In this document: positions 24,212 through 63,268 of the stretch, one piece after another
Layout of the letters: each line of letters starts with the position of its first letter
Numbering within the stretch: the first letter of the stretch is position 1
DNA from: a virus
Taxonomy: Duplodnaviria > Heunggongvirae > Uroviricota > Caudoviricetes
Strand: one strand, 5' to 3'
DNA length: 64,000 bases
IMG/VR virus record: IMGVR_UViG_3300046542_000259
The notes under the pieces: generated by a model
The model's input: only the letters and a program-made list of their open reading frames with translations
What the model was told of the DNA's origin: nothing
The model's database searches: none
Translations under genes and position numbers: made by a program

Positions 24212-24396
24212 TTAAACTATATCTCAAGGCTATCGCCGCAGCGTTTATAGGTATTGGGGCGTATGGTTACGTCGCCCCGGCCTACATTAGCTCAACCGAT
24301 AATGTTGAAGTCCTAATTGGTGTGCTGGTATGTCTATCCGCTCCCGTCGTAATGTTTTCAATTTTTAAAAAGGAGATTACAAAATATGTTTCTTAA
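24208..24396 (+). CDS. Small membrane protein
   Basis: GTG start coupled to the previous stop. Two hydrophobic spans. Confidence 0.3.
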   Translation: MIKLYLKAIAAAFIGIGAYGYVAPAYISSTDNVEVLIGVLVCLSAPVVMFSIFKKEITKYVS

Positions 24397-25228
24397 GAAG
24401 ATCGCCGCTCTCCTCCTGATCAGCGTTTCAGTTGTAGCATGTTCCAAGGTTCCGGCTGGTAATGTGGGCGTTAAGGTTTATCTGCTTGGTCAGGAGAAGG
24501 GTGTTGATAAAGAAATTCTAGGGCCGGGGCGTTATTGGATCGGAATGAATGAAGACTTGTTCCTATTCCCCACCTTTACTCAGAATTATTCCTTCACCGA
24601 AGAAGGTGAGAGAATGATTTTCCAGACCAAGGATGGTATGACGGTAAAGACTGGTGTTGGCGTTTCTTACTCCATCAATCCTGATAAGGTCTCTGATATT
24701 TTCCAGAAGTATCGGAAAGGTGTTGACGAAATCACTAGCATGGTATTGCGTAACATGATTCGTGACGCTTTTAACACTGAAGCCTCGACTCGTCCTATCG
24801 AATCGGTGTATGGCGGTGGTAAGGCCGCACTTATCGCAGCTGTTGAAAAGAGAGTCCGGGAACAGGTCCAGCCTATCGGAATCAATGTTGAGCGTATTTT
24901 CTTGATCGGTGAGCTTGAACTTCCTCCTCAGATCGTTGAACGGATCAATGCCACAATTGATGCACAACAGAAGACTCAGCAGAAACTCTTCGAAGTTGAT
25001 CAGCAGAAAGCGGAAGCGGCCAAGAGAATTGAAGATGCAAAGGGAGATGCTGAATCTATTAGGCTACGCTCCGAAGCAGAAGCTAAAGCTAATAAAATTC
25101 TAGCCGAAAGCTTGACTAGTGATTTGGTAAAATATAAAATGATTGAAAAGTGGAATGGATCGACGCCGAAGGTTACGGGTGGTGGTTCCCAAATTCTGAT
25201 CGAAGACTCTGAACTACTGAAAGAATAG
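24386..25228 (+). CDS. SPFH/band-7 (HflK/C-, stomatin-like) lipoprotein
   Basis: Lipoprotein-type signal LLISVSVVAC|S. An SPFH-like core (VGVKVYLLGQEKGVD...) is followed by a charged coiled-coil tail (QQKTQQKLFEVDQQKAEAAKRIEDAKGDAESIRLRSEAEAKA). Confidence 0.5.
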   Translation: MFLKKIAALLLISVSVVACSKVPAGNVGVKVYLLGQEKGVDKEILGPGRYWIGMNEDLFLFPTFTQNYSFTEEGERMIFQTKDGMTVKTGVGVSYSINPDKVSDIFQKYRKGVDEITSMVLRNMIRDAFNTEASTRPIESVYGGGKAALIAAVEKRVREQVQPIGINVERIFLIGELELPPQIVERINATIDAQQKTQQKLFEVDQQKAEAAKRIEDAKGDAESIRLRSEAEAKANKILAESLTSDLVKYKMIEKWNGSTPKVTGGGSQILIEDSELLKE

Positions 25229-33356: not shown

Positions 33357-34778
33357 TTAAATTTTAGAGTTAGCTCGAACCTCGGAGAATTTAATTGGTG
33401 GTCGCAGATATTTACCACCCTCCCAAACCGGCTCAAGGAAGTTCTTAGTTCCGTGGCTTGCATTATCCAGATCAGCTTTCTTAATGGAAACTAGTTTGTC
33501 TCCATTAAAAACGACTGCCTGCCTACCTGCTTTACTAGCTTTGGACATATCCGTCTTTGGTCTCTTCTGGACATCGGTTCTGACGCCGTTAATAGTGACT
33601 TCGTTAGTCTTCATGGCCCACGAGAAATCGTCACGCATCGGAGCCTGAAGAAGTTGCCCTCCCATACCAAAAACTACGTTCTCGGCAGAGAATCCAGCAG
33701 AAGCGACGGCAAAAAGAATGTCGTTGATTGATTTACGGTTTACACCGTCTCCCTGAATAACTCGAACCTTTGGATTAAGAACTTTAAATTCTTTGGAATT
33801 AATCGTTGATCCAAATTTTTCGTCAAGCATTCTTAGAACACGCGGAACAACTTCCGTAGGCTCACCACTATCCGGTCTGACCACGATCCAGCCATCACGA
33901 GCTTCAATCTTTTCCTTATAAACCGTGCCGATGTACTCTGTAACGAAGCGATCAAGATCATAGCTGTCTGCAACAATCGAGATGATTGGATATCCCATAT
34001 CAGTAAAAGTATCAATCACCTTACCAATGAAAGCAGATTCTCCATCTTCTCCATTCATAGTCGTTACACTATGTTCCGTAGCGGGTACGGAAATAATTAC
34101 TGGACCATCTTTTTCTAGATCATGATCGTAGTAAACCACGGCGGCTTCGATGGCCTCAAGAGTATCCGATCCTAAGAAGGACAAGGCATGAGCCATACCA
34201 CCTAGAGACGCGGTTTCACCAGATGACACGCCGCGACCGGCGAAGTCATTCAGCGCACAAGCAAGAGTCATCGGATTATGGATATCCAGATCGGAAGTTT
34301 TCTTGTAAAATTCCGCAATATTTTTCTTGATTGCGCGAGAAAGCGTGGCGACCGTTGACGGATACCATATAGCCCGCAACAGACTCGTCTCAATTTCCGC
34401 CACGATCTCAGGCATTACGTCTGAGGAGATTTGAACCACCGGCACGCCATGAGGAACTACAGTACCTTCAGCAAGAGCTTCAATTTTTACCGGTACATAT
34501 CCATCGAATTCGTTAACAACTCTCTCCCACGTCTTGCGGCTGAAAGGAATCATGGCTGACTTAGCGTAACGTTCTGCCTTATCGATATCCTGAATTGTGA
34601 CTCGTTTCATCAGATATTCCCTGATGTAAGCCTGAAGCCCGAAGAATACAATTTCATCGGTCCAACCGGACCGAGCTTCGATGTAAGATACAGCTGATGT
34701 GATATCTTCTCGAACCACAAAAAGATGGCTGAATTTGTAAGCATCATTTGATGTAATAATATTTCTAGTAAGTAACAT
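33357..34778 (-). CDS. nadV: Nicotinamide phosphoribosyltransferase (NAMPT)
   Basis: The N-terminal NIITSNDAYKFSH matches the NAMPT [TS]DSYKxxH motif. 473 aa. AGGAGA RBS. Confidence 0.75.
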   Translation of the reverse strand: MLLTRNIITSNDAYKFSHLFVVREDITSAVSYIEARSGWTDEIVFFGLQAYIREYLMKRVTIQDIDKAERYAKSAMIPFSRKTWERVVNEFDGYVPVKIEALAEGTVVPHGVPVVQISSDVMPEIVAEIETSLLRAIWYPSTVATLSRAIKKNIAEFYKKTSDLDIHNPMTLACALNDFAGRGVSSGETASLGGMAHALSFLGSDTLEAIEAAVVYYDHDLEKDGPVIISVPATEHSVTTMNGEDGESAFIGKVIDTFTDMGYPIISIVADSYDLDRFVTEYIGTVYKEKIEARDGWIVVRPDSGEPTEVVPRVLRMLDEKFGSTINSKEFKVLNPKVRVIQGDGVNRKSINDILFAVASAGFSAENVVFGMGGQLLQAPMRDDFSWAMKTNEVTINGVRTDVQKRPKTDMSKASKAGRQAVVFNGDKLVSIKKADLDNASHGTKNFLEPVWEGGKYLRPPIKFSEVRANSKI

Positions 34779-34809
34779 TAAAATTTTCTCCTAAGTTATT
34801 GAATTAAAT

Positions 34810-35832
34810 TTAGATTCCGAGCATCGTCTCTATAATATCTCCGTGATCGTCAAATAATTCATCACGACGAATATCCTCAATTTTAATCCACTTAGCTTTC
34901 TTAGCATCGTCCCCACCTTTAACTTTTGGTAGTGGGCCACCTCCTCGCAACTTAATCAAGAAAGCATCGGTAATAACTCTTCCCCTAAGACTTCTGAAAG
35001 GATGATCGAATCTACGGGACCAAGAAATTGAACTAAGGATTTCTTCTTCTTTTAATTTAATTGTAGTTTCTTGAGTAAGTTCCGCTATCAAAGCCTCAAG
35101 AATAGTTTGGTCCTGCTCAATAAAGCCTCCCGGCAAAGCCCATAGATTTTTCCCCGGAAGCATTTTCCTCTGAATCATTAGGATACAACCGTTTTTTACT
35201 ACGACCGCATCTACTGTGTTAAAAGTTGGAGGAAATGGCGACGAAGCCCACTTAAGTTTATAATCTTTATAGTGTTGATATTCGTCTACAAGATTTTTAT
35301 AATCCTCGGTGTTGCTAAATTTGTACAACTCATTTAAAACATTAGGATGAACTAATTCTTCTGAAATCAATTCTCCTTCAAAAAACTTAGCACGAAGATC
35401 AGTAGCATTAATTTTCAAGTGGTTCTCAATTTCAATCGTGTCCCATTCATGAAAATTGCGGATATAAGCTCCGTGCTTATCTTTCACGTGACCGATAATA
35501 CCTATTTTTTTAGGCTTGTCAGTAAACCCATAAATCGACGTTGTTGTAGCATCTACCGCACTACGAACACTAGTCACGTATTTATCGTTGTTGTAAGGGT
35601 AGTCCCGTTGACCCAAAAAGTGAATACGCTTATTCGTTGATTCACCATAACATGACTGAATCATTTTTGCGCGTTCTGAAGCGGTAAAGGGATTTCGTGG
35701 GTTTCTAGCGATGTCAGCCGAACCTAAAATGGTGATGACATGCGGTGCTCGATCCAGAGCTTCGTCCAACAAGCGCTTGTGGGCGCGACTAAAGAGTTGG
35801 AATCTTCCATTCAATACGAGTGTATCGTACAT
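34810..35832 (-). CDS. natV: Bifunctional NMN adenylyltransferase / Nudix ADP-ribose pyrophosphatase (NadM-Nudix)
   Basis: N-terminal LNGRFQLFSRAH resembles the NadM GRFQPFHxGH motif. C-terminal Nudix box GGFIEQDQTILEALIAELTQET. ATG at 35832 with AGGAGA is preferred over the listed 35901 start. Confidence 0.7.
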   Translation of the reverse strand: MYDTLVLNGRFQLFSRAHKRLLDEALDRAPHVITILGSADIARNPRNPFTASERAKMIQSCYGESTNKRIHFLGQRDYPYNNDKYVTSVRSAVDATTTSIYGFTDKPKKIGIIGHVKDKHGAYIRNFHEWDTIEIENHLKINATDLRAKFFEGELISEELVHPNVLNELYKFSNTEDYKNLVDEYQHYKDYKLKWASSPFPPTFNTVDAVVVKNGCILMIQRKMLPGKNLWALPGGFIEQDQTILEALIAELTQETTIKLKEEEILSSISWSRRFDHPFRSLRGRVITDAFLIKLRGGGPLPKVKGGDDAKKAKWIKIEDIRRDELFDDHGDIIETMLGI

Positions 35833-35944
35833 TTTCACACATTCTCCTGTGGTAGTTCGGTTAGGTAGTCCACCATACTTCTTCGCATGATGTAAAGGCA
35901 CCTTAACATAATAAAATGATTATGTCAAGAACTTTTTGAATGAT

Positions 35945-37259: not shown

Positions 37260-39386
37260 ATGAAATCAAATAATTTAGCAATGACAGATGTTGTGGTACA
37301 CGGTGCCCAACAATCAGGAAATTTTTCCATCGCCGCAAATGGTAAAGCTTTTAAAATCCTAATCGACGGCCTTTATTCAAATAAAATTCAAGCCATTGTT
37401 CGCGAACTTTCAAGTAATGCGTTTGATGCTCAAATCGCAGCATCTCGGGGCGATAAGCCTTTCGATCTCCAGCTTCCAAATCTCCTAGACCCAACATTTA
37501 GTGTTCGAGATTATGGCACGTCACTGTCTCACGACGACATTATGGGCCTGTATACCACAGTGTTTCAAAGCACCAAGGAAGACACAAATAACGCCGTGGG
37601 CAAATTTGGTCTAGGCTCAAAAACACCATTTGCTTACACCGATAGTTTTACTGTAACAGCCTTCATGCGCGGCACAAAACGTGTATATGGAGCTTATATC
37701 AATGTCAATGGCATTCCGCAAATTTCACTCATGGCGTCGGAAGATACCAATGAGCTTGACGGATTAATGGTCTCATTTCCTGTCAACTCAAAAGACTGTG
37801 AACAGTTTAGGGTTGAAACTGAGCGAGTTGTTCGTGGTTTTGACGTTAAGCCCAATGTTCGAGGCAATCAAATCGACGTGTCTGAAGTGGAACCTATTTA
37901 TACCGGTTCTTGCTTTAAGATTTTCAAGGGTCACGGCGTTCCGAGAGTCCGTCAAGGATGCGTCATTTATCCGATTAACACCACTAACCTACCCAAGCCT
38001 TGGAACGTGGCGCATGAGAATATTTTCAATACAAATATTCTAATTGATTTTCCAATAGGCGACTTGGATGTGACACCAAGTCGCGAAACACTCAGCTATG
38101 ATGATGTAACTATCAAAAACATCATGGACAGAGCCGCGTTAATCGATGCAGAGATCGTGGCTGAATATAGCGAACGCTTTGCCAAGGTCAGAACGTATTA
38201 CGAGGCTCAATGTTTTCAAGGCGACAATGGCCATCAAGTCCTTAAAAGCGTTCAGAGCTACCTCAATAATCTCGTTCATAATGGTAGAAGGGTTAACCCC
38301 TATAAACAGGTTCCTCGTGATAGGTTGAAGCATAATTATGGCTGCACCATCATGCATCATAGTGAATATGATGTGAACCAATCATCCAAAACTTTGAAAT
38401 TTAAAGTTAGCAATTATCATTGCGATTGGTCCGTAAATTCTGACACCATGTTCATCATTGAACATCCTGGCAAAAAGCTTCAGCACATTAATGCAAGAAT
38501 TCGCAATAATCTTAACGGCAAAACGAATGTTGTGTGGATCAAGAATATCGATGCCACGCCTAGACAGCTTCGTAAACTGAAGAAGCTTTTGGGCTATCCC
38601 CTAATTCATGACATAGCTGATCTCAAACTACCAGAACGTAGGAAGCCTGATCCGAACGATATCAGTCCCCGCATTAAAAAAACTGAGTGCAGGATTGAGC
38701 GTTTCAAGAGTCCCGGAAGCAGTTACACCTCAGAAGACGTGGTTAATTTGGAGGACCTTGACAAAGATACTCGCTATATCGTTGCCTATAGTGATTGGTT
38801 CCTGATTGATCCCGACGATAAGGAAACGACAGCATCTTTCTATGACTTGTCGCGATTTGTCACTGATTTAGATAAATTAATCATCGTTCGGCGTCAAAAC
38901 GCTCATAAGTTCAAAACATTTGGGTTTACCAATGCCCTGATCGAGGCACGTGATAAATTATTTGCAGAAATAGATTTTGAAAAATTTAAGGAAGGTGTTA
39001 CACTAGAAGTCATTAACGACGACAATTTCAGTGGTTTCAGTGGATTTTTTACCAATAAGGTATATACAGAAGACACTTCGTACAAGAAAGTGCTTGACTT
39101 TTTAGAAAAATATGGTAAAAAGCCTAACTATGCTGAAATTGATGCTAAGGTATGGTCTTGGAAAGCACTGGTTCCTGTCGCGACATATCAAGACGCGGTG
39201 AAGCAAGACATAGGTACAATCCCCGAAGAAGATAAATTAAGTCATTGGATCGCACAAATTCAAAACGACTATCCCCTCACGAAATACATTCTTGCAACGT
39301 ATTACAAATTCGATCAAGCCAAGGCTGACGAATTACACGATTATATTACTATAATGGATCATTATAAGAAAGAGAAAATGGCATGA
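37260..39386 (+). CDS. rIIA: rIIA protein (GHKL-ATPase-fold N-terminus)
   Basis: [29 protein letters not shown] aligns with T4 rIIA [51 protein letters not shown] aligns with [22 protein letters not shown]. 708 aa against 725 in T4. Confidence 0.85.
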   Translation: [708 protein letters not shown]

Positions 39387-40420
39387 GTAATTTTGGATTT
39401 ATTCAAACAGGTAAGGGCGTAACTCTATTTTTTGGAGCAAAGCCAGTTCCGGTGGATCAGAGCCACCTTTATTATGAAGAGATTGTAAAAGAATTGAAGA
39501 CCGGCGATCCTGATATTGCCAAGATTCTTGAACTTTCTGACGTTCCTGAAGCGATTAAGGGTAAGCTCTACGGCGACGTTACCGTTACAGACGGTGAGAT
39601 TTACTACCGCAACAAGCCGGTCCACAACATTTTGACCACAAAAATGATTCAGCTGATGAAAGAAGGCTGGGACATCAGTATTTGGGCCAACTTCCTTAAT
39701 AATTTGATGAAAAACCCGTCTCAGGTGGCGATTAACGAACTGTATCTTTTCCTTGAAAAGGCGCAGATGCCACTAACACCAGATGGACATTTTCTCGCAT
39801 TTAAAAAGGTACGCAATGATTACACCTCAATTCACGACGGTAAGACAGACAACAGTGTTGGCTCTCGTCCATCTATGCCACGTGAAGAAGTTGATCCCGA
39901 CCGTGACCGTCATTGCAGCCGTGGTCTTCATTTTTGTGCTCATAGTTACTTAACTCATTTTGGTGGTTCCACCGACCATCGCGTCGTTATTGTCAAGATT
40001 AATCCAGCCGACGTTGTAGCCATTCCTTCGGACTATGATAATGCTAAGGGCCGCGCTTGGACCTACGAAGTTGTGGATGAAATCCCAAATCCCGGTGTTG
40101 GGGACCGAGACAAGCGTTTCGATAAGGCCGTGGATGACAGCTGGGACGCGCCTGAAATCGTTGAGTCTGAATTAGAACCGGTTATTGATGAGCTACAATT
40201 TGCTCACGACATTGGCGCTATTTCAAATGAGGAACTGATTAAGGCTAGAACAGCCAACGATGACAGTGAGCTTCTGTTCGGTGACATCTACACCGCAGCA
40301 GAAATTGTAGCTAAGGTCAAGGAAATTGGCTCAGTTCGTGGCGCGGGTCGAGCCCTTGGTATTGCTAAGTCAACCTTTGGTGATTGGTACAAGAAGGCTA
40401 AGGAAGCTACGAATGGCTGA
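39383..40420 (+). CDS. rIIB: rIIB protein
   Basis: NFLNNLMKNPSQVAI...CSRGLHFCAHSYLTHFGGSTDHRVVIVKINPADVVAIPSDYDNAKGR aligns with T4 rIIB FLENLLENPSQKAV...CSRGLHVCSKSYIRHFGSSTDRVVKVKVHPRDVVSIPIDYNDAKMR. Confidence 0.85.
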   Translation: MSNFGFIQTGKGVTLFFGAKPVPVDQSHLYYEEIVKELKTGDPDIAKILELSDVPEAIKGKLYGDVTVTDGEIYYRNKPVHNILTTKMIQLMKEGWDISIWANFLNNLMKNPSQVAINELYLFLEKAQMPLTPDGHFLAFKKVRNDYTSIHDGKTDNSVGSRPSMPREEVDPDRDRHCSRGLHFCAHSYLTHFGGSTDHRVVIVKINPADVVAIPSDYDNAKGRAWTYEVVDEIPNPGVGDRDKRFDKAVDDSWDAPEIVESELEPVIDELQFAHDIGAISNEELIKARTANDDSELLFGDIYTAAEIVAKVKEIGSVRGAGRALGIAKSTFGDWYKKAKEATNG

Positions 40421-40999: not shown

Positions 41000-41184
41000 A
41001 TATTCTTTCTGAGTTACAATTTATTCTAGAAGATTATGTAGAGCAATGTGAAGAAGCTAGGACTTGGGGAGGACCAACAATGTACCCTCGTCATCCCATC
41101 ACGGAACATTCGGCAAAATATTACTCAAGAAAATTAAAAGAACTTATTAATGATTTACAAGACCCTTTATCATCTAGACAATAA
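40990..41184 (+). CDS. Hypothetical protein
   Basis: Overlapping ORF. Confidence 0.3.
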   Translation: MPIDILSELQFILEDYVEQCEEARTWGGPTMYPRHPITEHSAKYYSRKLKELINDLQDPLSSRQ

Positions 41185-41206
41185 CAACAATATCCGAACA
41201 TGGTTT

Positions 41207-42286
41207 ATGGAGCGCGACGGGTCACGATACTGCACCCATTCCGGTATTCAAGGCGGTAAGATCGTAACCAGCGAATGGAAACAGGCTGTTGAGAAGAATG
41301 TTGGTAAGACCAATGCCACCACGCCGGAAGAACAAGCCGATTTAGAAGTTGAAGCGATTTATCAGAAGAAGTTGGATCGCAAGTACAGCCTCACGCCTGA
41401 AACGGCGCAGCGTTCCAACTTCCTCCAACCTATGCTTGCCGCCACCTTAGATGAAAAGAAGACGTTGAAAGCTAAGAAGAAATGGTATCTACAACCAAAG
41501 CTCGACGGGCTTCGCTGTGTCATGGACGAAAATGGCGGTACGTCACGAGCCGGTAAGCCCTTCCATACCGTGGCACACATCGTTGACGAATTGAGAGACG
41601 CCGCAGCGAAATACAATGTCACGTTTGACGGCGAACTTTACAACCACGACTACAAACACGACTTTGAAAAAATTGTTTCATTGGTAAAGAAACAGAAACT
41701 TTCCAGTCTGACGGAAGACGATTTAAGTGAAATTGCGGCCAAGGTTCAATTTCACATCTATGACGTTATTTTTTGGGACGATCCAGAGCGCCGGTACGAG
41801 GATCGGCTCGCTTTTCTTGAACAAATTTTTAAGGAAGATTTTTCTGACGCCATTACTCTTAAGCTCGTACCAGCCACGCTCCATGACGATCTCACTTATG
41901 AAGAAGTGGTGGAAATGCATGACAAGTGGTTTGCACTTGGTTATGAAGGTTTAATGCTTAGAGATGCCGATTCCGAATACGAGCACAAGCGTTCCAAGGG
42001 ATTGGTAAAGTTTAAAGATTTTGACGAAGCAGAATTTACTATTGTCTCTTTCATTGAAGGCACAGGCAATTGGGCCGGTGCGCTGAAGTCGGTAGAAGTT
42101 GAAGTCCCTAGCGGTACATCAGAAGCTGGTGTGGCGGGACCATATGAAGTCAATGTTGAACGTCTCGCTAGAGCCAAAGAATATCTAGGCGGCGATGCAA
42201 CGATCAAGCATAAGGGCTGGACCAAGGATGGCAAGCTTCGCCACGGCGTTGCGAAAGCGTTCCATATCGGTAAGAGGGATTATTGA
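41207..42286 (+). CDS. ATP-dependent DNA ligase (T7-type, minimal)
   Basis: Motif I LQPKLDGLRC (KxDG), motif III FDGELY, motif IV EGLMLRD, motif V LVKFK. The start could instead be ATG 41150. Confidence 0.75.
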   Translation: MERDGSRYCTHSGIQGGKIVTSEWKQAVEKNVGKTNATTPEEQADLEVEAIYQKKLDRKYSLTPETAQRSNFLQPMLAATLDEKKTLKAKKKWYLQPKLDGLRCVMDENGGTSRAGKPFHTVAHIVDELRDAAAKYNVTFDGELYNHDYKHDFEKIVSLVKKQKLSSLTEDDLSEIAAKVQFHIYDVIFWDDPERRYEDRLAFLEQIFKEDFSDAITLKLVPATLHDDLTYEEVVEMHDKWFALGYEGLMLRDADSEYEHKRSKGLVKFKDFDEAEFTIVSFIEGTGNWAGALKSVEVEVPSGTSEAGVAGPYEVNVERLARAKEYLGGDATIKHKGWTKDGKLRHGVAKAFHIGKRDY

Positions 42287-49353: not shown

Positions 49354-50529
49354 GTGAACTACGAATTCCCACGAATCGTGCATATCAGCCAAGTCCTTGA
49401 AGCTATTGAAGGTGATGAAGACCTTTTTTACGTCGTTGAGAAAGAAGGCTATACCGTTATCAACTACAAGTTGCCATGCAATAAAACCTTCCCAGCAGTT
49501 GTAGATCGTAACACCGCGATTCGTCGGGAACTTCGGGGTATTAAATTTGATAATATTACTGGCGAAATTCTGGCTAGACCTTTTCATAAGTTCCACAACT
49601 ATGGCGAGAGAGAAGAAACTTTAGCCGCAAACGTTGATCTTTCTGTTGGTTATGATCGTTTAGAAAAGCTTGACGGCTCGATGGTTCACCCGTTGTTTCT
49701 TAACGGAAATTTCCGATGGAGCACCAAGATGGGTATCACTAACACTTCTATGCAGACCGAAACATGGTTGGCCCGCGATCCTCAGCAAGGGTTGTCACAA
49801 TTTATTAAAGAGTGCTGGAATGAGCGTGATACGCCAATATTCGAATGGTGCAGCCGCCAGAACCGCATCGTTGTGGATCATCCCGTAGATCGCCTAGTCC
49901 TTACCGCTGTTCGTAATAATTATAGCGGCGAGTATTGGCGCTATGAGGCATTAGAAGATTGTGGAAGTTACTTTGACATTGAGGTGGTGGCCATCGATAC
50001 CACCCCAATCAAAGATATGAAATCTTACTCTGAATCGATCTACGAAATTAAGAGTGACACAATCACTGAAGGCGAAGTGCTTCGGTTCCATGACGGTCAT
50101 ATGCTAAAGCTGAAGACGCAAGATTACGTCAATCTTCATCGTACCAAAGATAAGATTCAGAAAGAGCGTAATTTAGTCGCTGTCCTTCTCGCTTCTCAGC
50201 TTGACGATCTTAAGCCTTTCATGCTAAAAGAAGATTTGGCGAAGGCCGAGGCTTATGAAAATCAGTTGAGTCAGAACGTGGCTGATATTTGCGCCTCAAT
50301 CACAAGAGAAGCAAATCAGATTGTATCGTCGGAAATGTCACGTAAGGATTTTGCGTTAAATTCGAAAGCCGATCCATTCGTCCGTCAAATCATTTTCCAG
50401 CTATGGGACAAAAATTTTCCTGTGGATATAATTTCTGACGAAGTGATGAAACGCTTAACCGATGCTTGCGAGCATGAGCAGAAATTCGAACGACTTAAAT
50501 CAGTATTGTTAAAGGGGTGCGTGTGGTGA
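49354..50529 (+). CDS. rnlA: RNA ligase 1 (T4 RnlA-like)
   Basis: RGIKFDNITGEILARPFHKFHNYGE and LEKLDGSMV align with T4 Rnl1 [28 protein letters not shown] and TKEDGSLV (motif I lysine). 391 aa against 374. Confidence 0.75.
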   Translation: MNYEFPRIVHISQVLEAIEGDEDLFYVVEKEGYTVINYKLPCNKTFPAVVDRNTAIRRELRGIKFDNITGEILARPFHKFHNYGEREETLAANVDLSVGYDRLEKLDGSMVHPLFLNGNFRWSTKMGITNTSMQTETWLARDPQQGLSQFIKECWNERDTPIFEWCSRQNRIVVDHPVDRLVLTAVRNNYSGEYWRYEALEDCGSYFDIEVVAIDTTPIKDMKSYSESIYEIKSDTITEGEVLRFHDGHMLKLKTQDYVNLHRTKDKIQKERNLVAVLLASQLDDLKPFMLKEDLAKAEAYENQLSQNVADICASITREANQIVSSEMSRKDFALNSKADPFVRQIIFQLWDKNFPVDIISDEVMKRLTDACEHEQKFERLKSVLLKGCVW

Positions 50530-50759
50530 AAAAGATTTTACTAATCACTTTAATTGCTTTGGGTCTATCTTCGTGCGGTCCAGATGTGGGTAAAAACGTT
50601 TACATCGGGGTAACTGGTGGTCCGTCGATCTTGGGCAAGGTGATGGCCAAGAAAACTGATCTTGCCGTGGTTAGAACATGTAGCGGGGAAGTTTATACTG
50701 TCAATGTTGCTTATCTCATTGAAACTGAAGAAACTTGTGCTAATGCCAATGTCCAATAG
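50517..50759 (+). CDS. Small lipoprotein
   Basis: Signal LLITLIALGLSSC|G. Confidence 0.35.
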   Translation: MRVVKKILLITLIALGLSSCGPDVGKNVYIGVTGGPSILGKVMAKKTDLAVVRTCSGEVYTVNVAYLIETEETCANANVQ

Positions 50760-51390
50760 TTGCGCCCTATGCGATACTTGTGTCTTTTCAGAGCCGCGAT
50801 CAGAGCTATATTATGAAATCCATATCACGGTAAACAATTCTGAAAATTTTGTTTCGGATTGCTATGAATTAGGAATTAAGCCAATCATCATCGATATGGG
50901 TGAGGACGTTCCGGCCCATGTCATGACGAGTGCCACGGTCAAGGGAAATGATCAAATCGCGTTTACCACGGCTAACGGCTTCGCCAACGCGTTCCGTGAT
51001 CGCGGCTATGAAGTTCTCAGGATGAAGATCGAAACCGTTCCTTGGCATCCCTGCGCCTCGCATCCTTCCGATGATCAATACTTTGAAACGCATTTCGCTA
51101 TCAGGAAACAAGGCGACAACTACCTATTGAACGAAATCTTAAAAACTGCCCCATTTCTTCATCGATCAAGAAACTTGTTGAAACGCGGCGGCGATTTGAT
51201 CCAGATGGTAACTTTTCGTCTCAATAAAATCAATTCGACGGAGTTTTTGAGTCGGGTAGAACAAATCACCAATAATTTGGAAGCTGCTGGGCTAAAGCTC
51301 GAAAAAGTCATTACAGAATTCGCTCTGTATGACACAAACGTTAAGATGGATGAAGCATGGCTACGATCAACATCCCGAAACCGGAATTAA
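50746..51390 (+). CDS. Hypothetical protein, weak 2H-phosphoesterase-like first motif
   Basis: The first motif HITV is clear. The second, HFAI, is degenerate. ATG at 50746. Confidence 0.2.
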   Translation, partial: PMSNSCALCDTCVFSEPRSELYYEIHITVNNSENFVSDCYELGIKPIIIDMGEDVPAHVMTSATVKGNDQIAFTTANGFANAFRDRGYEVLRMKIETVPWHPCASHPSDDQYFETHFAIRKQGDNYLLNEILKTAPFLHRSRNLLKRGGDLIQMVTFRLNKINSTEFLSRVEQITNNLEAAGLKLEKVITEFALYDTNVKMDEAWLRSTSRNRN

Positions 51391-52152: not shown

Positions 52153-52320
52153 AAGCTCCCCCATGTCGGACCATTACACGAAAAACGGCGACCGAAATTG
52201 ATCAATTTGGTTATCCCGTGGATGACGGTAAAGATGTTCCCGGCTGGGAATATACAGAATTAAGGACATATGGGACCACAGATGTAATCCGTGTCCCAAC
52301 AAGATATATTGGAAATTATT

Positions 52321-52842
52321 ATGACAACGAAACCTCTTTTGATAGTTTTGGTTGGCTTCCCGGCGACAGGTAAATCTACGTTCCGAGAAGCTTTGAGGCT
52401 AAGGAACGGTTTTTCTTTCATGGCCATTAGTTCTGATGATTACATTGACCATGAAGCTAGATTACAAGGTAAAACCTACACCGAAGTGTTTGACAAAGCC
52501 GTTGGACCGGCAAACGTAGCGATTGAGGCAGATGCGAAAGCAGCTAAAATGCTTGGCGCGAACGTTGTTTGGGATCAAACTAATTTAACTGTGAAGAAAC
52601 GCAAAATAATCCTTGACAAATTCAAGGATTATGATAAAGTATGCGTATATTTTCCAATTCCTAATGATTGGTACAATCGTTTAGATAAACGGGCTGAAGT
52701 TGAGGGTAAGTTAATTCCCCATAATGTCCTAGGAAGTATGCAAGATTGTTTTGAATCTCCACGATTATCTGAGGGATTCTCATGGATTCATACTCCGGAA
52801 TCTTTCCTTAAGTATTTCGAAAATTTAATGGTAAGTAATTGA
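52321..52842 (+). CDS. Polynucleotide 5'-kinase (homologous to the T4 Pnkp N-terminal kinase domain)
   Basis: P-loop LVGFPATGKSTF aligns with T4 TIGCPGSGKSTW. WDQTNLTVKKRKIILDKF and IPHNVLGSMQ align with ISDTNLNPERRLAWETF and IPIDVLRSMY. ATG at 52321 within ORF 52291. Confidence 0.7.
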   Translation: MTTKPLLIVLVGFPATGKSTFREALRLRNGFSFMAISSDDYIDHEARLQGKTYTEVFDKAVGPANVAIEADAKAAKMLGANVVWDQTNLTVKKRKIILDKFKDYDKVCVYFPIPNDWYNRLDKRAEVEGKLIPHNVLGSMQDCFESPRLSEGFSWIHTPESFLKYFENLMVSN

Positions 52843-52843
52843 A

Positions 52844-53371
52844 ATGGCAAATGTATTTTTCACTGGATGTACCCATCTCGGCCATTTAAAAATCCTTACT
52901 CTTGGCCATGGGAGACCCTTTTCTTCCTTGAAAGAGCATGATGAAACTCTGATCAAAAATTGGAACGCCAGAGTAACTACTTCTGACGTAGTATTTCATC
53001 TAGGAGATTTCAACTATAAGTCATCAGTCGATGCGGATTTCTATCTTAAACAATTAAATGGCAAAAAATTCCTCATCATTGGAAATCATGACCATCAGAA
53101 AACTATTACAGCCGATGGTTGGGAAGATACATTCCTCTATCAGGAGATTGAATTAAATAACGAAAAAATCACACTCTGCCATTACCCAATCGCGGAATGG
53201 AACGGGTATTTTAGAGGAGCATGGATGTTGCACAGTCACGTTCATGGGAACGTGACTAAACAAGTACCAATTGTTAAAAACCGAGTGGATGTAGGTGTAG
53301 ACAACTTTAATTTTGCCCCAGCTACGTTCGAAGAAATCAAAAATTATAACAAAATGAAAATCGGAGAATAA
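52844..53371 (+). CDS. Calcineurin-like metallophosphoesterase
   Basis: FTGCTHLGH, LGDFNY and IIGNHDHQ. It directly follows the kinase gene. Confidence 0.5.
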   Translation: MANVFFTGCTHLGHLKILTLGHGRPFSSLKEHDETLIKNWNARVTTSDVVFHLGDFNYKSSVDADFYLKQLNGKKFLIIGNHDHQKTITADGWEDTFLYQEIELNNEKITLCHYPIAEWNGYFRGAWMLHSHVHGNVTKQVPIVKNRVDVGVDNFNFAPATFEEIKNYNKMKIGE

Positions 53372-53372
53372 T

Positions 53373-53864
53373 TTGACTACCATTGTATTTCGTGACGGGA
53401 TTCTTGCGTCTGATTCAAAAATGAGTTTTGGCGGTGTTTATGCGGGGAATTTTAAAAAAGTATTTAAAGTCACAATGGAAGAGAGTCAAAGTTTAGTTGA
53501 TAGACTACTTCATAAACCAATTGAACGAAAAGAATATCTAGTAGGCGCGGCAGGATCAGTCCCAGATATTCAAGAATATTTAGATTATATTTTTGAAGGT
53601 GGCCGCGAACCAAACAACGATTTAGAATGCTCAATCTTAACGATTGAAAAGACTGAAGACGGCGGGTACGATATTCAATATTATGGAGGCGGTGCCAGAC
53701 TATCGCATAACATCGGCGGTGATTATTACGCCATGGGCTCCGGCGCTGATATTGCTTATGGAGCGTTGTATCACGGAGCTTCGGCGGAACAAGCTGTTCG
53801 TGCCGCGATTCATCACGACAATGGCAGCGGCGGTGCGGTTCAGATCGTGAGCTTTGAAGACTAA
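53373..53864 (+). CDS. HslV/ClpQ-like N-terminal-threonine (Ntn) peptidase homologue
   Basis: The N-terminus [30 protein letters not shown] aligns with E. coli HslV [47 protein letters not shown] aligns with AIGSGGPYAQAA. TTG start with a GGAGA RBS. Confidence 0.55.
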   Translation: [163 protein letters not shown]

Positions 53865-54043
53865 TGAAATCCAACATTGATTACGGGGAGCTTCAAAAAT
53901 ATTTTGAACTGCTTCGAAAAGGTAATGTTGTCGCGGCGCGACTTCATAACGGTCAAATTTCTCACCACGCTGCCACTGTTTTATTCAAAAAAGTAATAGA
54001 AGAATTTTGTATCACGTATCAAGAAGAAAAATCCATTAAATGA
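53864..54043 (+). CDS. Small hypothetical protein (59 aa)
   Basis: Hand-translated, TAATG-coupled ORF MKSNIDYGELQKYFELL... Confidence 0.3.
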   Translation: MKSNIDYGELQKYFELLRKGNVVAARLHNGQISHHAATVLFKKVIEEFCITYQEEKSIK

Positions 54044-54372
54044 ATATCATGATTGACTACGACGGAACCTATACCGCAGCGATTGAAATGTGGCGTAAAC
54101 TGATCCCACAGATGCAACTCGCGGATCATAACGTCTATCTAGTCACGTCACGAGGCATGGATACTCCTATTGAATTAGTTCAAGATTTTGTCGCTATGCA
54201 TGTTCCAATCATTTATTGTACTTGGCGAGCCAAAAGAAAAGTGTGTGAAGAACAGGGTATTAGTATAGATATCTGGATCGATAATGATCCTTTTTATATC
54301 GATACAGGATTTGTAGAAGAGCAGGTTCAAGAAATAAAACTAAGGCACGCCAATGACTTGCACAATCTTTAA
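54040..54372 (+). CDS. Possible small HAD-like phosphatase
   Basis: MIDYDGTY (DxDxT motif I-like), VTSR and IDND. Support is weak. Confidence 0.25.
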   Translation: MNIMIDYDGTYTAAIEMWRKLIPQMQLADHNVYLVTSRGMDTPIELVQDFVAMHVPIIYCTWRAKRKVCEEQGISIDIWIDNDPFYIDTGFVEEQVQEIKLRHANDLHNL

Positions 54373-54850
54373 AACTGATCCCGAACTGGTAACACCGTTC
54401 GGGATTTGGCTATCAAATCATTTAAATCGAGGCGCTGATATTGTTTGGCCTTTTGTTCGTCAGCATACCTACGATATTTTAAAGAAGCAATTTTTTAATC
54501 AGACCTACGCCCTCCATGAGTCTTATCGACATCTGGAAGAATTTGAAGAATATCATTTTGGGTCCACCGAGTCCATAATGCCCTTTCCGTCCGGTGTGAT
54601 GAAATATAGCTACGAAGAATATTCACTTCTAGTTGCTCCGGTCGAACGGTTCAGAATCAAATTGGAACCTCTGCGCGGAGAATTTGAGATTGATACTAGG
54701 CATTTGATGGGCAGTCCTACAAAATATGTCCAAGAAAGAATAATTAAACAAATTGGCGAAACATGGCGACAACGGGGTGAAGCCGAAATTAGAAGATTTT
54801 TTGAGAGTTTAGAAGATAATGACCAAATTCGTAAAGTTTCCAAGTATTGA
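54353..54850 (+). CDS. Hypothetical protein
   Basis: Overlapping ORF. Confidence 0.35.
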   Translation: MTCTIFKTDPELVTPFGIWLSNHLNRGADIVWPFVRQHTYDILKKQFFNQTYALHESYRHLEEFEEYHFGSTESIMPFPSGVMKYSYEEYSLLVAPVERFRIKLEPLRGEFEIDTRHLMGSPTKYVQERIIKQIGETWRQRGEAEIRRFFESLEDNDQIRKVSKY

Positions 54851-55802
54851 AAAATTTAGTGACGTTAACGCTCATGTAAAGCGACATTTTGATGTTGAGA
54901 ACCGCCCAAAGGTTTTATACCGTGGTAAATGTAAGCTCCATGGCACTAACGCTTCGATTCGTGTCGATAGTGATGGATTAATTACCTGTGGTAAGCGATC
55001 AGATATTTGCACCATTGAGAGTGATAACGCTGGATTCGCCCGTCACGTAGAAACAATTAAAACTGAAATCCCGGTAATTGGTTTCAATTATGTTCTTTTT
55101 GGTGAATGGGCCGGTCCCGGTATCCAGAAAAAGGCAGCTGTTTCACTGATTGAGAAGAAGACATTTTTTGTTTTCGCTATGCTCAATCTAGAAACTGGCT
55201 ATATCGCTGTTGATCCCACTAGGATTGTGACTTGGCTAGGCACTAATATTCTGCCTTTTGAAATCATTCCTTGGCACTTAGATGCTACGGTTGAAATTGA
55301 CTTCCGACTTCAATCTTCTATGGAAGCTGCGATGAAACAGATCGGGGCATGGGTTGAGGCTTGTGATAAAGTTGACCCTTATGTCAAGGATCGCTACGGC
55401 ATTGAAGGCATTGGCGAAGGGTTCGTATTCACTCCGTTTGTTGATGAAATGCCGTTCACTGATTACAGTAATTATTTGTTCAAGGCAAAAGGGGAGAGCC
55501 ACGCCGGAACTAAGGGTGATAAGGCTAAGATTGAAATCGATCCAGCCGTTCTTGAAGGGGCTACAGCATTTGCGATTCAGTTTGTGACTGAGGCTCGGTG
55601 TAGTCAGGGCGTAACAGAGGCTTGTGACGGCGTAGCCGCGACTAAAAACATTGGACCTTTCATGGCTTGGCTCGGAGCCGATGTCAAGAAAGAATCAGTG
55701 AATGAATTAGAGGCTTCTGGTCTGGAATGGAAGCAAGTATCTAAAGCAGTTAACCAGTATGCAAGAGAATGGTTCTTACTAGAAATTGAAAAGGCGTTAT
55801 AA
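54819..55802 (+). CDS. rnlB: RNA ligase 2 (T4 RnlB-like)
   Basis: KLHGTNASI aligns with T4 Rnl2 KIHGTNFSL (motif I). FGEWAGPGIQKK aligns with FGEFAGPGIQKN. Confidence 0.75.
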   Translation: MTKFVKFPSIEKFSDVNAHVKRHFDVENRPKVLYRGKCKLHGTNASIRVDSDGLITCGKRSDICTIESDNAGFARHVETIKTEIPVIGFNYVLFGEWAGPGIQKKAAVSLIEKKTFFVFAMLNLETGYIAVDPTRIVTWLGTNILPFEIIPWHLDATVEIDFRLQSSMEAAMKQIGAWVEACDKVDPYVKDRYGIEGIGEGFVFTPFVDEMPFTDYSNYLFKAKGESHAGTKGDKAKIEIDPAVLEGATAFAIQFVTEARCSQGVTEACDGVAATKNIGPFMAWLGADVKKESVNELEASGLEWKQVSKAVNQYAREWFLLEIEKAL

Positions 55803-57543: not shown

Positions 57544-59274
57544 ATGGCAATAACTATTGAAAGACATGACGGGATTTATGTAGCACGATGTCTATATGAA
57601 GATAGGCTCGCACTCAGCCGTGCCGGTTTTACTTTTAATAAAACGTTGAAACGATGGATCACGGCAGATGATGCTATTGCTAAAACGTTTTATGACTATA
57701 CCGTAGGCGACGCACGTGTCAGACTTGATAACATTGAGCGTGTTAAGATTGAACTGGTAGAGGCGTCATTCGCAGAAGATTATGACGGCGATCTGCTATG
57801 TCCAGAAGGGAGGAAATATCTGCCGTTCCAACGTGCTGGTATTGCCTATGCTCTTGGTAAAAAAGATTGCTTAATAGGGGATTCCCCCGGCCTAGGTAAA
57901 ACTATCCAAGCACTCGGTATCATTAACAACGTTGTGGAGGCTAAAAAAATCCTCATCGTTGTCCCTGCTTCACTAAAAATTAATTGGCGAAAAGAAGCTG
58001 AGCGTTGGTTGATGCGTGGTCTCACCGTGGATATCGCTAGACCTAAACAAAAAACTATTATTGATGAAGAAGGGACGAAGAAAAGTGCCCGCGATTATTT
58101 TTGGCCCGACACAGATGTAATCATTTGTAATTACGAAGCCCTAGGTAATTACAGGGATCAGATCGATGGTACTGCATGGGACATTCTGATTTGTGATGAA
58201 GCTCACGTATTAAAGAACGCGAAAGCAGCAAAGTGTATTCAAATTTTTGGGGGAGGAGCTAAAGGCAAAGAACGAATCAAAGCTATCGTGGCGAAGAAAC
58301 GCGTTTTATTGACTGGTACGCCTATCTTGAATCATCCACTTGATATGTTTGTGATGATTGAAGCCTTTGGAATTAAAGAGTTTGGAAATTACATCAGATT
58401 CATTAAACGATATTGCGCCGCTGTTATGACACCTTGGGGACATTGGGACACGTCAGGCGTTGATCACTTAGACGAGTTTCAAGAGATTCTTCGCTCCACC
58501 TTCATGATCCGGCGCATGAAAGAAGATGTATTGAAAGATTTACCTCCGAAACGGAGACAAGTCATTACTCTTCCTCAAGATGGTTTGAGTAAAACTGTTA
58601 AAAAGGAAATGACAGTTTTTGCCGATAATATCAAACAATTAATGATATTAAATGGCGAGAAAACAGAAGCAGATTATGAAGACATGTCGGATGAAGACTT
58701 AGGACTTCTAATTGATACTATTCATGAGCGTACCAAAGATTTTGATGATGTTGAGCTAACTGAATACATGGCTACTCACTTTGAAGCTGTGGCTCATGCC
58801 AGAGAAGAAATTGGTTTAGCTAAATTGCCGATGGTGATTGAGTATGTCAAGAATCTTTTGGAATCAGTGGATAAATGCGTCATTCTCTGCATTCATAAGG
58901 CCGTGGCCGCGAAAATAGCTGAAGCCTTCCCCGGCGCGGTAAAATTTGTGGGAGGCATGAGCGACAAAGAAAAGGACAAAGCCGTTGAAGCGTTTCAATA
59001 TGATCCTGATTGTCGCTTATTTGTTGGGAACATCAATGCTGCTGGCGTGGGGATCACTCTTACAGCGGCTTGGAATCTTGTCATGGCAGAGCTTTGTTTC
59101 GTTCCTGCCCTTCTTGAGCAAGGCGAAGACAGAATCCACAGAATTGGTCAAGAAGATCACGCCCTGATTCACTACTTAATCGTGGAAGGCTCTCTGGAAT
59201 CTCGATTGATTGAGATTATTATGACGAAACAAGAAATGATTAATGAGGCACTTAACAGGAAAAGAACGTCATGA
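57544..59274 (+). CDS. SNF2-family (SF2) DNA helicase/translocase
   Basis: Motif I DSPGLGKT, motif II ICDEAHVLKN, motif VI QGEDRIHRIGQ. Confidence 0.75.
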   Translation: MAITIERHDGIYVARCLYEDRLALSRAGFTFNKTLKRWITADDAIAKTFYDYTVGDARVRLDNIERVKIELVEASFAEDYDGDLLCPEGRKYLPFQRAGIAYALGKKDCLIGDSPGLGKTIQALGIINNVVEAKKILIVVPASLKINWRKEAERWLMRGLTVDIARPKQKTIIDEEGTKKSARDYFWPDTDVIICNYEALGNYRDQIDGTAWDILICDEAHVLKNAKAAKCIQIFGGGAKGKERIKAIVAKKRVLLTGTPILNHPLDMFVMIEAFGIKEFGNYIRFIKRYCAAVMTPWGHWDTSGVDHLDEFQEILRSTFMIRRMKEDVLKDLPPKRRQVITLPQDGLSKTVKKEMTVFADNIKQLMILNGEKTEADYEDMSDEDLGLLIDTIHERTKDFDDVELTEYMATHFEAVAHAREEIGLAKLPMVIEYVKNLLESVDKCVILCIHKAVAAKIAEAFPGAVKFVGGMSDKEKDKAVEAFQYDPDCRLFVGNINAAGVGITLTAAWNLVMAELCFVPALLEQGEDRIHRIGQEDHALIHYLIVEGSLESRLIEIIMTKQEMINEALNRKRTS

Positions 59275-61553: not shown

Positions 61554-62286
61554 ACGTTTGCTAGACAATTCATATTATGTGTATTTATTACTCAACCCTT
61601 TGAAAAACGATGAACCTTTTTACATCGGTAAAGGTAAGGGAAAAAGAGTTAAGGATCATTACACACCCGGCTACTTAAAACAGAATAACCATAAATCTAA
61701 CATTATCAATCTTTATAGATCAAAGGGATATGAAGATAAATATCTCATACTAAAAGATGGGATGACAAATCAAGAGGCTTATGATTGGGAAACTTGGTTC
61801 ATTCTTGAAATGTATGGGATGAAGAAAGCTGGTGGTCTGCTAGTAAATCAAACTACAGGAGGTGGTGGATCGCCGGGATTTGCCGCACCTAGAACTGACG
61901 AGTGGCGTGAAAAGATTTCTAAAGGAAATAAAGGTAAAAAGAGAACCTCTGCGCAAAACGAGGCAAACTCAAAGCGGACTAAAGCACGGGGGCCTCATCC
62001 TAATGTAGGTGAAAAAATTAGTAAAGCCTTAAAAGGAATCCCAAAAGCTCCTGAACATGTAGATAAAGTTAGAAAAGCTCTTCTAGGAAGAACTTACCCC
62101 GGAAGAGTATATCTTAGAGAAGGCAAAACTTATAATTTAATTTCTCCTTACGGCAAATTATTGGTAGTAACTAATCTGAGTGAATTTTGTAAAATAAATA
62201 ATTTATCCGTTAATTGTATGTATCACGTAGTTAATGGAAGAGCTAGTAATCATAAAGGGTGGAAACTCGGTGAAACAATTAATTAA
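61537..62286 (+). CDS. GIY-YIG homing endonuclease (Seg-like) with NUMOD-type repeats
   Basis: YYVYLLLNPLKNDEPFYIGKGKGKR is the GIY-YIG motif. The C-terminus has Lys-rich repeats EKISKGNKGKK / GEKISKALKG. AT-rich. The start codon is uncertain (TTG 61537 or GTG 61579). Confidence 0.6.
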   Translation: MILVIRRLLDNSYYVYLLLNPLKNDEPFYIGKGKGKRVKDHYTPGYLKQNNHKSNIINLYRSKGYEDKYLILKDGMTNQEAYDWETWFILEMYGMKKAGGLLVNQTTGGGGSPGFAAPRTDEWREKISKGNKGKKRTSAQNEANSKRTKARGPHPNVGEKISKALKGIPKAPEHVDKVRKALLGRTYPGRVYLREGKTYNLISPYGKLLVVTNLSEFCKINNLSVNCMYHVVNGRASNHKGWKLGETIN

Positions 62287-63268
62287 ACTTGAATTTGGGA
62301 GTTCACTTTACGGAACAAAAACTCCTACGAGCGATACGGACTACAAAGGCGTGCATATTCCTTCGGCCCGTTCTCTAGTGATGCAGAACGCGGATCGCGT
62401 CATTTCAAATTCAACTGGCAGTGATAAAGTCAAAAATACTGCGGATGATGTTGATGATGAGAGTTTTTCCCTTCTAAAATTCTTTGCTATGCTGAAGAAG
62501 GGCGACATGGTGGCTCAAGAACTACTACATGTGTCTGTTGAACAGGCTCTTGTCATGTCGCCAGAGTGGGAAAACATTATCCTCCCTAACAAAAATCGCC
62601 TCGTTGCTAGAGATGTTAAAGGCTTTGTAGGCTACTGTAGGCAACAAGCAAACAAATATGGTATACGAGGATCGCGTGTCGCTGCGGCTCGCAATGCAAC
62701 TGAAATGTTCGCGTTCTGGATCGAACAGTACGGGGCAAACACAAAGATCAAAGACGTTCCCGATTTCGAGCACTTTTTTGAGTGTTTCTGTGAACTCAAC
62801 GAACACGCCGAGGTGATTCAACTTCCTGTGGCTAAGGGCAGCACGGAAATGGTTAACTACCTAGAAGTAGTAAACCGTAAAGTTGGCTACACCATCGCGC
62901 TCAAGGAAGCTCATTCTATCTATAAGAGAGCCTTCGATGAATTCGGTTCAAGGGCTCTTGCGGCGGAAAAGAACGAAGGCGTGGACTGGAAAGCCTTGTA
63001 TCACGCGATTCGCGTCTCAGAGCAAGCCATGGAGCTTCTTCAGGACGGTGTGATCACTTTCCCCCGCTGGAACGCTCAAGAGCTTTTGACTATCAAGCGT
63101 GGTGAGCACGATTACAAAGATATAGCGAGAATGCTGGAAGACAATCTAGATAAGCTTGAAGTGCTCATGACCAAATCCGATTTACCTGAGAAGGTAGATA
63201 CTAATTTTATGGATCAAGTCGCTCATGATCTACACCTCAAACAGATCAAAAATGAATATTTTGCTTAA
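62270..63268 (+). CDS. Pol-beta-superfamily nucleotidyltransferase
   Basis: GSSLYGTKTPTSDTDYKGV is the NTase-fold signature [GS]-x9-DxD. GTG start at 62270 regenerates MKQLIKLEFG. 333 aa. Confidence 0.5.
   Translation: MKQLIKLEFGSSLYGTKTPTSDTDYKGVHIPSARSLVMQNADRVISNSTGSDKVKNTADDVDDESFSLLKFFAMLKKGDMVAQELLHVSVEQALVMSPEWENIILPNKNRLVARDVKGFVGYCRQQANKYGIRGSRVAAARNATEMFAFWIEQYGANTKIKDVPDFEHFFECFCELNEHAEVIQLPVAKGSTEMVNYLEVVNRKVGYTIALKEAHSIYKRAFDEFGSRALAAEKNEGVDWKALYHAIRVSEQAMELLQDGVITFPRWNAQELLTIKRGEHDYKDIARMLEDNLDKLEVLMTKSDLPEKVDTNFMDQVAHDLHLKQIKNEYFA

Follow-up and report, generated by a model that had tools for sequence, protein, structure and literature searches.

What does a proteasome-type peptidase do for the phage that encodes it, and does it depend on the HslU ATPase of the host? 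These questions are raised by an open reading frame (ORF) in a 64,000-nt stretch of DNA (here called the window) from IMG/VR virus record IMGVR_UViG_3300046542_000259. The original prediction took it for the gene of an HslV-like peptidase inside an RNA-repair gene set, whose product could hijack host HslU to degrade chosen targets. We place the product instead, by sequence and predicted structure, in the phage-specific proteasome homologue (PPH) family of proteasome-like Ntn (N-terminal threonine) peptidases. We think it reasonably probable that it is a stand-alone, HslU-independent threonine peptidase, minimal and propeptide-less, that is carried as a portable single-gene module. Databases commonly file such proteins as 'HslV family peptidase', a name that wrongly suggests HslU hijack, as the sequence favours an enzyme that is independent of HslU. 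The coordinates of the gene, its catalytic codons and its neighbours are collected in Table 1.

The gene starts exactly as originally described, at a TTG codon with a good ribosome-binding site. There is an in-frame TGA at 53355-53357, and the TTG at 53373 is the earliest start possible downstream of it. Relatives were collected with a profile search of 1.84 billion representative sequences, which returned 11,247 matches, including 7,173 at E ≤ 1e-10 that are mostly 138-160 aa (amino acids) in length; the conservation counts given here are from an alignment of 156 relatives drawn from these matches. The predicted TTG start is confirmed by homology: the first residue is Met in 150 of these relatives and Val or Leu in six (evidently alternative start codons), and position 1 of the profile corresponds to residue 1 of the protein in nearly all of the best 150 matches, which indicates that there is no propeptide.

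E. coli HslV (its sequence checked against PDB 5ji3) was added to the alignment for residue mapping. HslV Thr1, Asp17, Lys33, Gly45, Ser124 and Gly125 correspond to Thr2, Asp14, Lys29, Gly58, Ser123 and Gly124 of the window protein. The features of the active site that had been claimed or listed for checking are all in place: a threonine directly follows the initiator Met and aligns with Thr1 of HslV, the equivalents of Thr1, Lys33 and Gly45 are conserved throughout the family, and the GSG motif of the second conserved block (within residues 120-131) is found at residues 122-124, where it aligns with the GSG of yeast proteasome subunit beta5 and where both glycines are invariant. A non-catalytic Ntn-fold protein can be rejected because the threonine nucleophile forms the mature N-terminus and the active-site lysine is also present. 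It is likewise most improbable that the protein is a non-proteolytic Ntn enzyme (a transpeptidase or ligase like archaeal connectase, or a small-molecule amidohydrolase) or an inactive scaffold. Against the former, the full proteasome-type catalytic set is conserved, including the equivalents of Ser129, Asp166 and Ser169, and the similarity to HslV and beta5 is far above that to connectase; against the latter, the Thr/Ser1 and Lys33 equivalents are 100% conserved.

The window protein is a genuine member of the proteasome-beta/HslV superfamily of Ntn hydrolases, and comparisons at the level of profile and fold agree. Its match to the Pfam Proteasome family (PF00227; 16.5 bits, E = 0.0066) lies under the gathering cut-off of 22.4 bits, a threshold that is passed by some relatives and by longer fusion proteins (23-39 bits). 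A profile of the window protein and seven relatives matches yeast beta5 from mature Thr1 onward (37.5 bits, E = 2.7e-8); the scores of the window-protein profile are 35.6 bits for BPH and only 25.6 bits for T. maritima HslV. When a 60-sequence profile was compared with E. coli HslV using hhalign, the probability was 96.7% (E = 4.4e-10). BFVD contains 33 viral structural relatives at E ≤ 1e-3, and in PHROGs the protein matches phrog_1040 ('peptidase HslV family') over its full length (E = 1.2e-28).

The PPH family, to which PHROG 1040 is equivalent, is described by Fuchs et al. (2021; PMC8665760) as proteins of ~140 residues, without a propeptide, that are encoded by Caudovirales and by prophages within host genomes. 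According to the same paper, helix H2 is missing solely in PPH and RPC, PPH also lacks the C-terminal elements S12/H5, and in cluster maps PPH radiates from BPH/HslV. The window protein fits this description. Without its 18-aa insertion, its 163 aa leave a core of ~145 aa (family median, 147 aa); there is no propeptide; the equivalents of Thr1, Asp17, Lys33 and Gly47 are present; H2 is missing; and the last structural element of an AlphaFold2 (AF2) model is the strand formed by residues 157-160, with S12/H5 absent. The window itself, with rIIA/B, primase and tail-fibre-like genes and PHROG matches, is that of a tailed phage. The characteristics of BPH (185-200 aa, H2 kept and a long acidic pore loop) are not those of the window protein. 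The assignment thus follows from the phrog_1040 match and the fit to the published description, used as a proxy for clustering with the representative WP_042125023.1. On this basis, we classify the window protein as a divergent new member of the already described PPH family and not as an HslV (T1B) orthologue. Relatives were found in 59 phage records, in 460 or more IMG/VR contigs and in 35 genomes, most of them alphaproteobacterial. Clustered at 50% identity, the family has over 7,000 representatives; proteasome-type threonine peptidases are widespread in phages. Homologues from cultured phages are labelled variously as 'peptidase HslV family', 'proteasome subunit beta', 'Ntn hydrolase' and 'hypothetical'.

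Whether such a protein could dock host HslU to form a hybrid ATP-dependent protease against chosen host targets was assessed in three ways. First, the NCBIfam equivalog models for HslV, NF003964 (cut-off 137 bits) and TIGR03692 (cut-off 157.75 bits), scored 303.3 and 287.5 bits with the positive control, E. coli HslV, and gave no match at E ≤ 1 with the window protein or four typical relatives. The profile search against the HslV family that had been suggested as a check was therefore negative, with PF00227 below its cut-off and both beta5 and BPH outscoring HslV. 'HslV-like' remains apt for a proteasome-type Ntn peptidase with HslV as its nearest solved fold, but not in the sense of a T1B orthologue.

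Second, the surface that HslU recognizes is altered. In both AF2 models, one helix (residues 63-75) stands in place of H1 and H2 of HslV, the H2 region of HslV was left unaligned by hhalign, and the segment from Gly45 to Ser124, which has 79 residues in HslV, has a median of 64 in the PPH family (~15 shorter). The C-termini of HslU enter pockets between HslV subunits that are lined by Phe54, Phe57, Gln114, Ala79 and Lys80 (PMC6429459). In the window protein, Phe54 is replaced by Gln67, Phe57 by Leu70 and Gln114 by Tyr103, Ala79 and Lys80 are deleted, and the corresponding columns are variable in the family. The cluster Arg86/Arg89/Lys90 at the end of H2, which is needed for HslV activity and is remodelled by HslU (PMC5777263), is replaced by Glu, Pro and Asn, again in variable columns.

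Third, there is no sign of a partner. As the original prediction had noted, no HslU gene is visible in the window: Pfam and PHROGs searches of 26 of its 28 ORFs of at least 240 aa found no AAA+, HslU or ClpX-like gene. Among the most frequent neighbours of PPH in 80 IMG/VR loci, there is no ATPase. BPH, the HslV descendant that is nearest to PPH in the cluster maps, has lost the HslU-interface residues and fails to pull HslU down (PMC5777263). The window protein probably acts without HslU, because it has lost both the H1/H2 face where the HslU tails bind and the pore cluster that responds to HslU. The proposed hijack of host HslU fares poorly against these results, with H2 absent and the tail-pocket and pore residues missing or unconserved across the 156 relatives, and we consider the hybrid protease quite unlikely.

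How, then, would a stand-alone threonine peptidase work? Host methionine aminopeptidase would strip Met1, as it does for E. coli HslV, to expose Thr1, whose hydroxyl and free alpha-amine, together with the Lys33 and Asp17 equivalents, would hydrolyse peptide bonds. The subunits would probably stack into double rings like those of HslV and BPH, because helices H3 (residues 125-133) and H4 (residues 138-148) are retained. Its substrates would be peptides, unfolded stretches of protein or a specific target, and no ATPase would be needed. In the lineage of the window phage, the gene is located in a region of early accessory genes and genes of counter-defence type (rII, NAD salvage and RNA repair). 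Substrate-directed activity that is independent of an ATPase is credible in this superfamily because Rrp (SP_1145), which is carried on a mobile genetic element in S. pneumoniae TIGR4, is a stand-alone protease that trims ribosomal protein bL27 (preprint 10.64898/2026.08.10.744006).

The contexts of PPH genes in other phages are heterogeneous. When the 1,693 ORFs that surround 84 homologues were clustered de novo, no neighbour cluster occurred in more than 13 loci. In Proteus phage RS51pmB, lysis genes are followed by PPH and then by the large terminase gene (TerL), and in CcrSC PPH is beside TerL. Eryne, FBKp34 and a Vibrio phage have an endolysin gene, PhoH, a hypothetical gene and a longer PPH fusion, while the Rhizobium and Bradyrhizobium phages have only hypothetical genes near PPH. 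In the CbK-like Erythrobacter phage vB_EliS-L02 (L125:3501-7414), PPH is followed by a gene for a 1,007-aa hypothetical protein and then by a gene for an RtcB-type 'RNA-splicing ligase'. Because no neighbour cluster exceeds 13 loci and contexts differ in this way, PPH behaves as a self-sufficient, portable single-gene module. The longer PPH-like proteins (218-304 aa; Table 1) have a C-terminal extension that is foreign to the window protein; those of 288-304 aa, encoded in a PhoH-hypothetical-PPH order, share with it a homologous N-terminal domain (~30% identity). No recognizable fused domain was found when these extensions were scanned, and the longer proteins are probably members of the group that Fuchs et al. 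named 'RPC'.

The most common arrangement in IMG/VR is near the packaging genes. A large terminase or portal gene is located within 2.5 kb of PPH in at least 33 of the 80 IMG/VR loci (L007-L086; for example L013:5379-9764, L066:4987-9727 and L007:6221-8414), in the orders TerL-PPH-portal (14 loci), PPH-TerL-portal (nine loci) and PPH-TerL (eight loci), and stop and start codons often abut or overlap. This placement hints at late expression of PPH in small phages. It also raises the possibility of a processing protease linked to morphogenesis that trims N-terminal leaders or otherwise processes head, portal or scaffold proteins, as host Prp does with capsid proteins of staphylococcal phage 80-alpha, or that is itself packaged in the virion. 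The RS51pmB and CcrSC arrangements and the experimental support for N-terminal trimming by a proteasome-like Ntn protease (Rrp on bL27) are consistent with such a role. Nevertheless, we consider it unlikely, as PPH is distant from the structural genes in the window phage and other large phages, where it belongs to early or accessory regions, and evidence from virion proteomes was not found. Accessory 'moron' genes are often located immediately upstream of terminase, and heads of the P22-like and SU10-like types can generally mature without a protease. The terminase/portal placement of PPH is not mentioned in the available sections of the paper that defines the family (PMC8665760).

In the window, PPH is surrounded by genes of a different kind. 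It is part of a tightly packed co-directional array, because the junctions of stop and start codons abut or overlap on both sides: the TAA of the preceding gene (53369-53371) abuts the TTG start, and the 59-aa ORF that follows overlaps the PPH stop codon. The 59-aa product has no homologue in any library searched, and its gene was found beside PPH in no other locus. Promoter and terminator scans of the 47-60 kb region gave background levels only, and no transcription-unit boundary was called. The original prediction that PPH follows a polynucleotide kinase (PNK) gene and a metallophosphoesterase gene was correct, and so was its location inside an RNA-repair gene set, but that arrangement is confined to one phage lineage.

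This lineage can be recognized by comparison with cultured phages. The best cultured matches of the window rIIA are from roseophages RcXuper, RpAliso, MD18 and DSS3P8 (~38-42% identity), and the uncultured window phage is, judging from such protein comparisons, a distant relative of the RcXuper/DSS3P8-like roseophages. Rhodobacter phage RcXuper has the same repertoire, in the order RNA ligase, PNK, PPH, NMNAT, NAMPT and DNA ligase. When 26 window proteins were compared with 83 PPH loci using tblastn, Rnl1, PNK, NAMPT and NMNAT were found only in RcXuper and one IMG/VR contig (L036), with the NAD-salvage genes found also in phiCbK. Because the phages that share Rnl1-PNK-PPH are the nearest relatives of the window phage, the RNA-repair neighbourhood is best read as a gene order inherited within one lineage and not as a trait of the PPH family. 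A link between PPH and metallophosphoesterases was considered and rejected, as the window metallophosphoesterase and the FBKp34 phosphoesterase share only superfamily motifs.

A protease that serves counter-defence or is coupled to RNA repair would account for this neighbourhood in another way. PPH would destroy a host immune effector, for example the anticodon nuclease that causes the damage repaired by Rnl1 and PNK, and would act in concert with the counter-defence genes around it. In favour of this explanation, PPH shares its array with Rnl1, the PNK kinase, the metallophosphoesterase and a second RNA ligase, the window also encodes rIIA/rIIB, NAMPT, NMNAT/Nudix and RlaP proteins, the order Rnl1-PNK-PPH is kept in RcXuper-like phages and RtcB is near PPH in L02. 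However, the association is absent from 78 of the 80 IMG/VR loci and from most cultured phages, the order among the sharers is explained by common ancestry and neither a PADLOC relationship nor direct evidence of a target was found; we therefore hold this reading to be decidedly doubtful. A broader version, in which PPH is an ATPase-independent counter-defence or host-takeover protease in a phage counter-defence island (rII, NAD+ salvage and RNA repair), cooperating with Rnl1 and PNK in this lineage and with the helix of the 18-residue insertion as its target-recognition element, is also doubtful. The RNA-repair context here and the terminase/portal placement in many smaller phages together point to PPH as a self-contained module.

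Several observations weigh against a stand-alone, HslU-independent peptidase carried as an independent module. HslV is the single solved fold closest to the window protein, most cultured PPH phages infect bacteria that are known to encode HslU, and PPH may make a non-canonical contact with HslU or another unfoldase. Intact catalytic residues are no proof of general protease activity because BPH, with an intact active site, is inert on standard substrates (PMC5777263), and our literature search on phage PPH/HslV-like proteins found annotation-level mentions only and no experimental study. In addition, the order Rnl1-PNK-PPH survives divergence to ~30-35% protein identity, RtcB, an unrelated RNA ligase, is encoded 3 kb downstream of PPH in Erythrobacter phage L02, and there may be some functional tie of PPH to RNA repair.

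The window protein differs from most PPH in its insertion of 18 residues (residues 35-52). This insertion is present in only three of the 156 relatives, namely the window protein and two proteins that are 88% (P0002) and 43% (P0132) identical to it, and all three have the motif S-x-V-D-[RK]-L-L. It is modelled as a short helix (residues 41-45, pLDDT ~81-83). The insertion appears to be kept by selection, because it and its motif persist at 43% overall identity. As both ends of the hairpin are at the active site, the hairpin tip with the insertion would be expected to face away from it. Only a few metagenome contigs carry copies of the window protein that are identical or 88% identical to it, and no protein beyond its own cluster exceeds 43% identity. 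It adds to the PPH family a divergent sub-clade with a conserved extra helix.

Other genes of the window deserve brief mention. The kinase-only PNK and the metallophosphoesterase resemble the kinase and metallophosphoesterase domains of bacterial Pnkp, encoded as two genes. The partner in the 'split PNK' may be this metallophosphoesterase and not the HAD-like ORF at 54040-54372, which has a DYDGT motif, a phrog_4919 match and a weak match to 1xpj. No match in Pfam or PDB was obtained for the 228-aa ORF just after Rnl1; its HITV and THFAI motifs are reminiscent of 2H phosphoesterases, and its product may be a further RNA-end-healing enzyme. The NAMPT-NMNAT/Nudix pair adjoins PPH in RcXuper and is near PPH in phiCbK. 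The SPFH/Band-7 and R2K-clade ATP-grasp genes are unusual as phage accessory genes. PADLOC gave no match for PPH or its small unannotated neighbours. At the nucleotide level, none of 50,697 phage records matched the region, and the phage is known only from metagenome contigs.

Table 1. Coordinates of the PPH gene, its functional sites and other features of the window, with three longer relatives from other phages (numbered within their own loci); residue counts are from the alignment of 156 relatives.
Feature	Position	Strand	Remarks
PPH-family proteasome-like Ntn peptidase gene	53373..53864	+	163 aa, TTG start, TAA stop
GGAG, Shine-Dalgarno-like	53363..53366	+	6 nt 5' of the TTG; read from sequence
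Thr2 codon, predicted Thr1 nucleophile after Met removal	53376..53378	+	aligns with Thr1 of mature beta5 and HslV; T 147/156, S 9/156
Asp14 codon (proteasome/HslV Asp17 equivalent)	53412..53414	+	D 153/156, E 3/156
Lys29 codon (catalytic Lys33 equivalent)	53457..53459	+	K 156/156
18-residue insertion	53475..53528	+	in the hairpin that connects the strands of Lys33 and Gly45/47
Gly58 codon (HslV Gly45/proteasome Gly47), oxyanion hole	53544..53546	+	G 142/156, A 14/156
Gly122-Ser123-Gly124 codons (HslV Ser124-Gly125/proteasome Ser129-Gly130)	53736..53744	+	156, 130 and 156 of 156
Asp149...Ser152-Gly153-Gly154 codons (proteasome Asp166, Ser169, Gly170)	53817..53834	+	aligns with 'DAYSGG' block of beta5; Asp149 D 121/156, position 152 S/T/C 156/156, Gly153 G 127/156, Gly154 G 140/156
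59-aa ORF	53864..54043	+	its ATG shares one base with the PPH stop codon
Rnl1-type RNA ligase	49354-50529		
228-aa ORF	50704-51390	+	PADLOC 'AbiEi' PDLC02279 (E = 1.5e-30), PDLC02277 (3.1e-24)
Kinase-only PNK	52291-52842	+	Pfam AAA_33, 3.5e-14
Metallophosphoesterase	52844-53371	+	phrog_547 phosphoesterase, 1.7e-43; PDB 1xm7, 3e-9
PF09414 RNA ligase	54819-55802		
SNF2 helicase	57544-59274		
RlaP-family ('RNA repair pathway DNA polymerase beta family') nucleotidyltransferase	62234-63268	+	~8 kb downstream of PPH
NAMPT (473 aa) and fused NMNAT/Nudix (363 aa)	33357-35901	-	two-gene NAD+ salvage pair
rIIA and rIIB	37260-40420	+	adjacent, overlapping; phrog_612, 7.6e-124; phrog_609, 6.4e-70
ATP-dependent DNA ligase	41150-42286		
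SPFH/Band-7 protein	24386-25228	+	PF01145, 2.8e-24
R2K-clade ATP-grasp protein	9974-10807	+	PF14243/PF18299
ORF with DUF7487 and weak SegE-like GIY-YIG match	14432-15550	-	probably a homing endonuclease
Longer PPH-like protein, FBKp34	L088:5001-5915		
Longer PPH-like protein, Vibrio phage 501E54-1	L002:5001-5867		
Longer PPH-like protein, Escherichia phage Eryne	L127:3501-4154		

Were a target of the window protein to be identified among defence proteins, host regulators or virion proteins, PPH would represent a new class of phage effector. Its place among known systems can be stated as follows. With the PPH family it has in common its compact size, the lack of a propeptide, the Thr1/Asp17/Lys33/Gly47 set, the loss of H2 and S12/H5, carriage by tailed phages and prophages, mainly of Proteobacteria, and BPH and HslV as sequence neighbours. 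It differs from the family in its insertion and its low identity to proteins outside its own cluster, and its gene is in an RNA-repair array, unlike the terminase/portal context that is commonest in IMG/VR.

Compared with HslV/ClpQ, the window protein is missed by the curated models, is ~15 residues shorter between Gly45 and Ser124 owing to the missing H2, lacks the pore cluster and the tail-pocket residues, and has no hslU gene alongside. BPH (PDB 5ovs and 5ovu) is a closer parallel, being HslV-derived and propeptide-less, with its HslU interface lost and no known ATPase partner, and the profile score of the window family for BPH is similar to that for beta5; BPH is, however, longer (~185-200 aa), with H2 retained and a long acidic pore loop, and is encoded on the chromosome in stress-related operons, while PPH is shorter and phage-borne. 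The 20S beta subunits provide the best profile-to-sequence match (yeast beta5/Pre2), which starts at mature Thr1 and covers all of the active-site blocks. These subunits are synthesized with propeptides, have ~200 aa with H2 and the C-terminal elements, and depend on alpha rings; the window protein shares none of these properties. Rrp, like the window protein, is a proteasome-like Ntn hydrolase carried by a mobile element or phage, but it belongs to another, larger subfamily (Anbu/beta-like, with extra domains) of Firmicutes. The N-terminal extension of bL27 on which Rrp acts does not exist in Gram-negative hosts.

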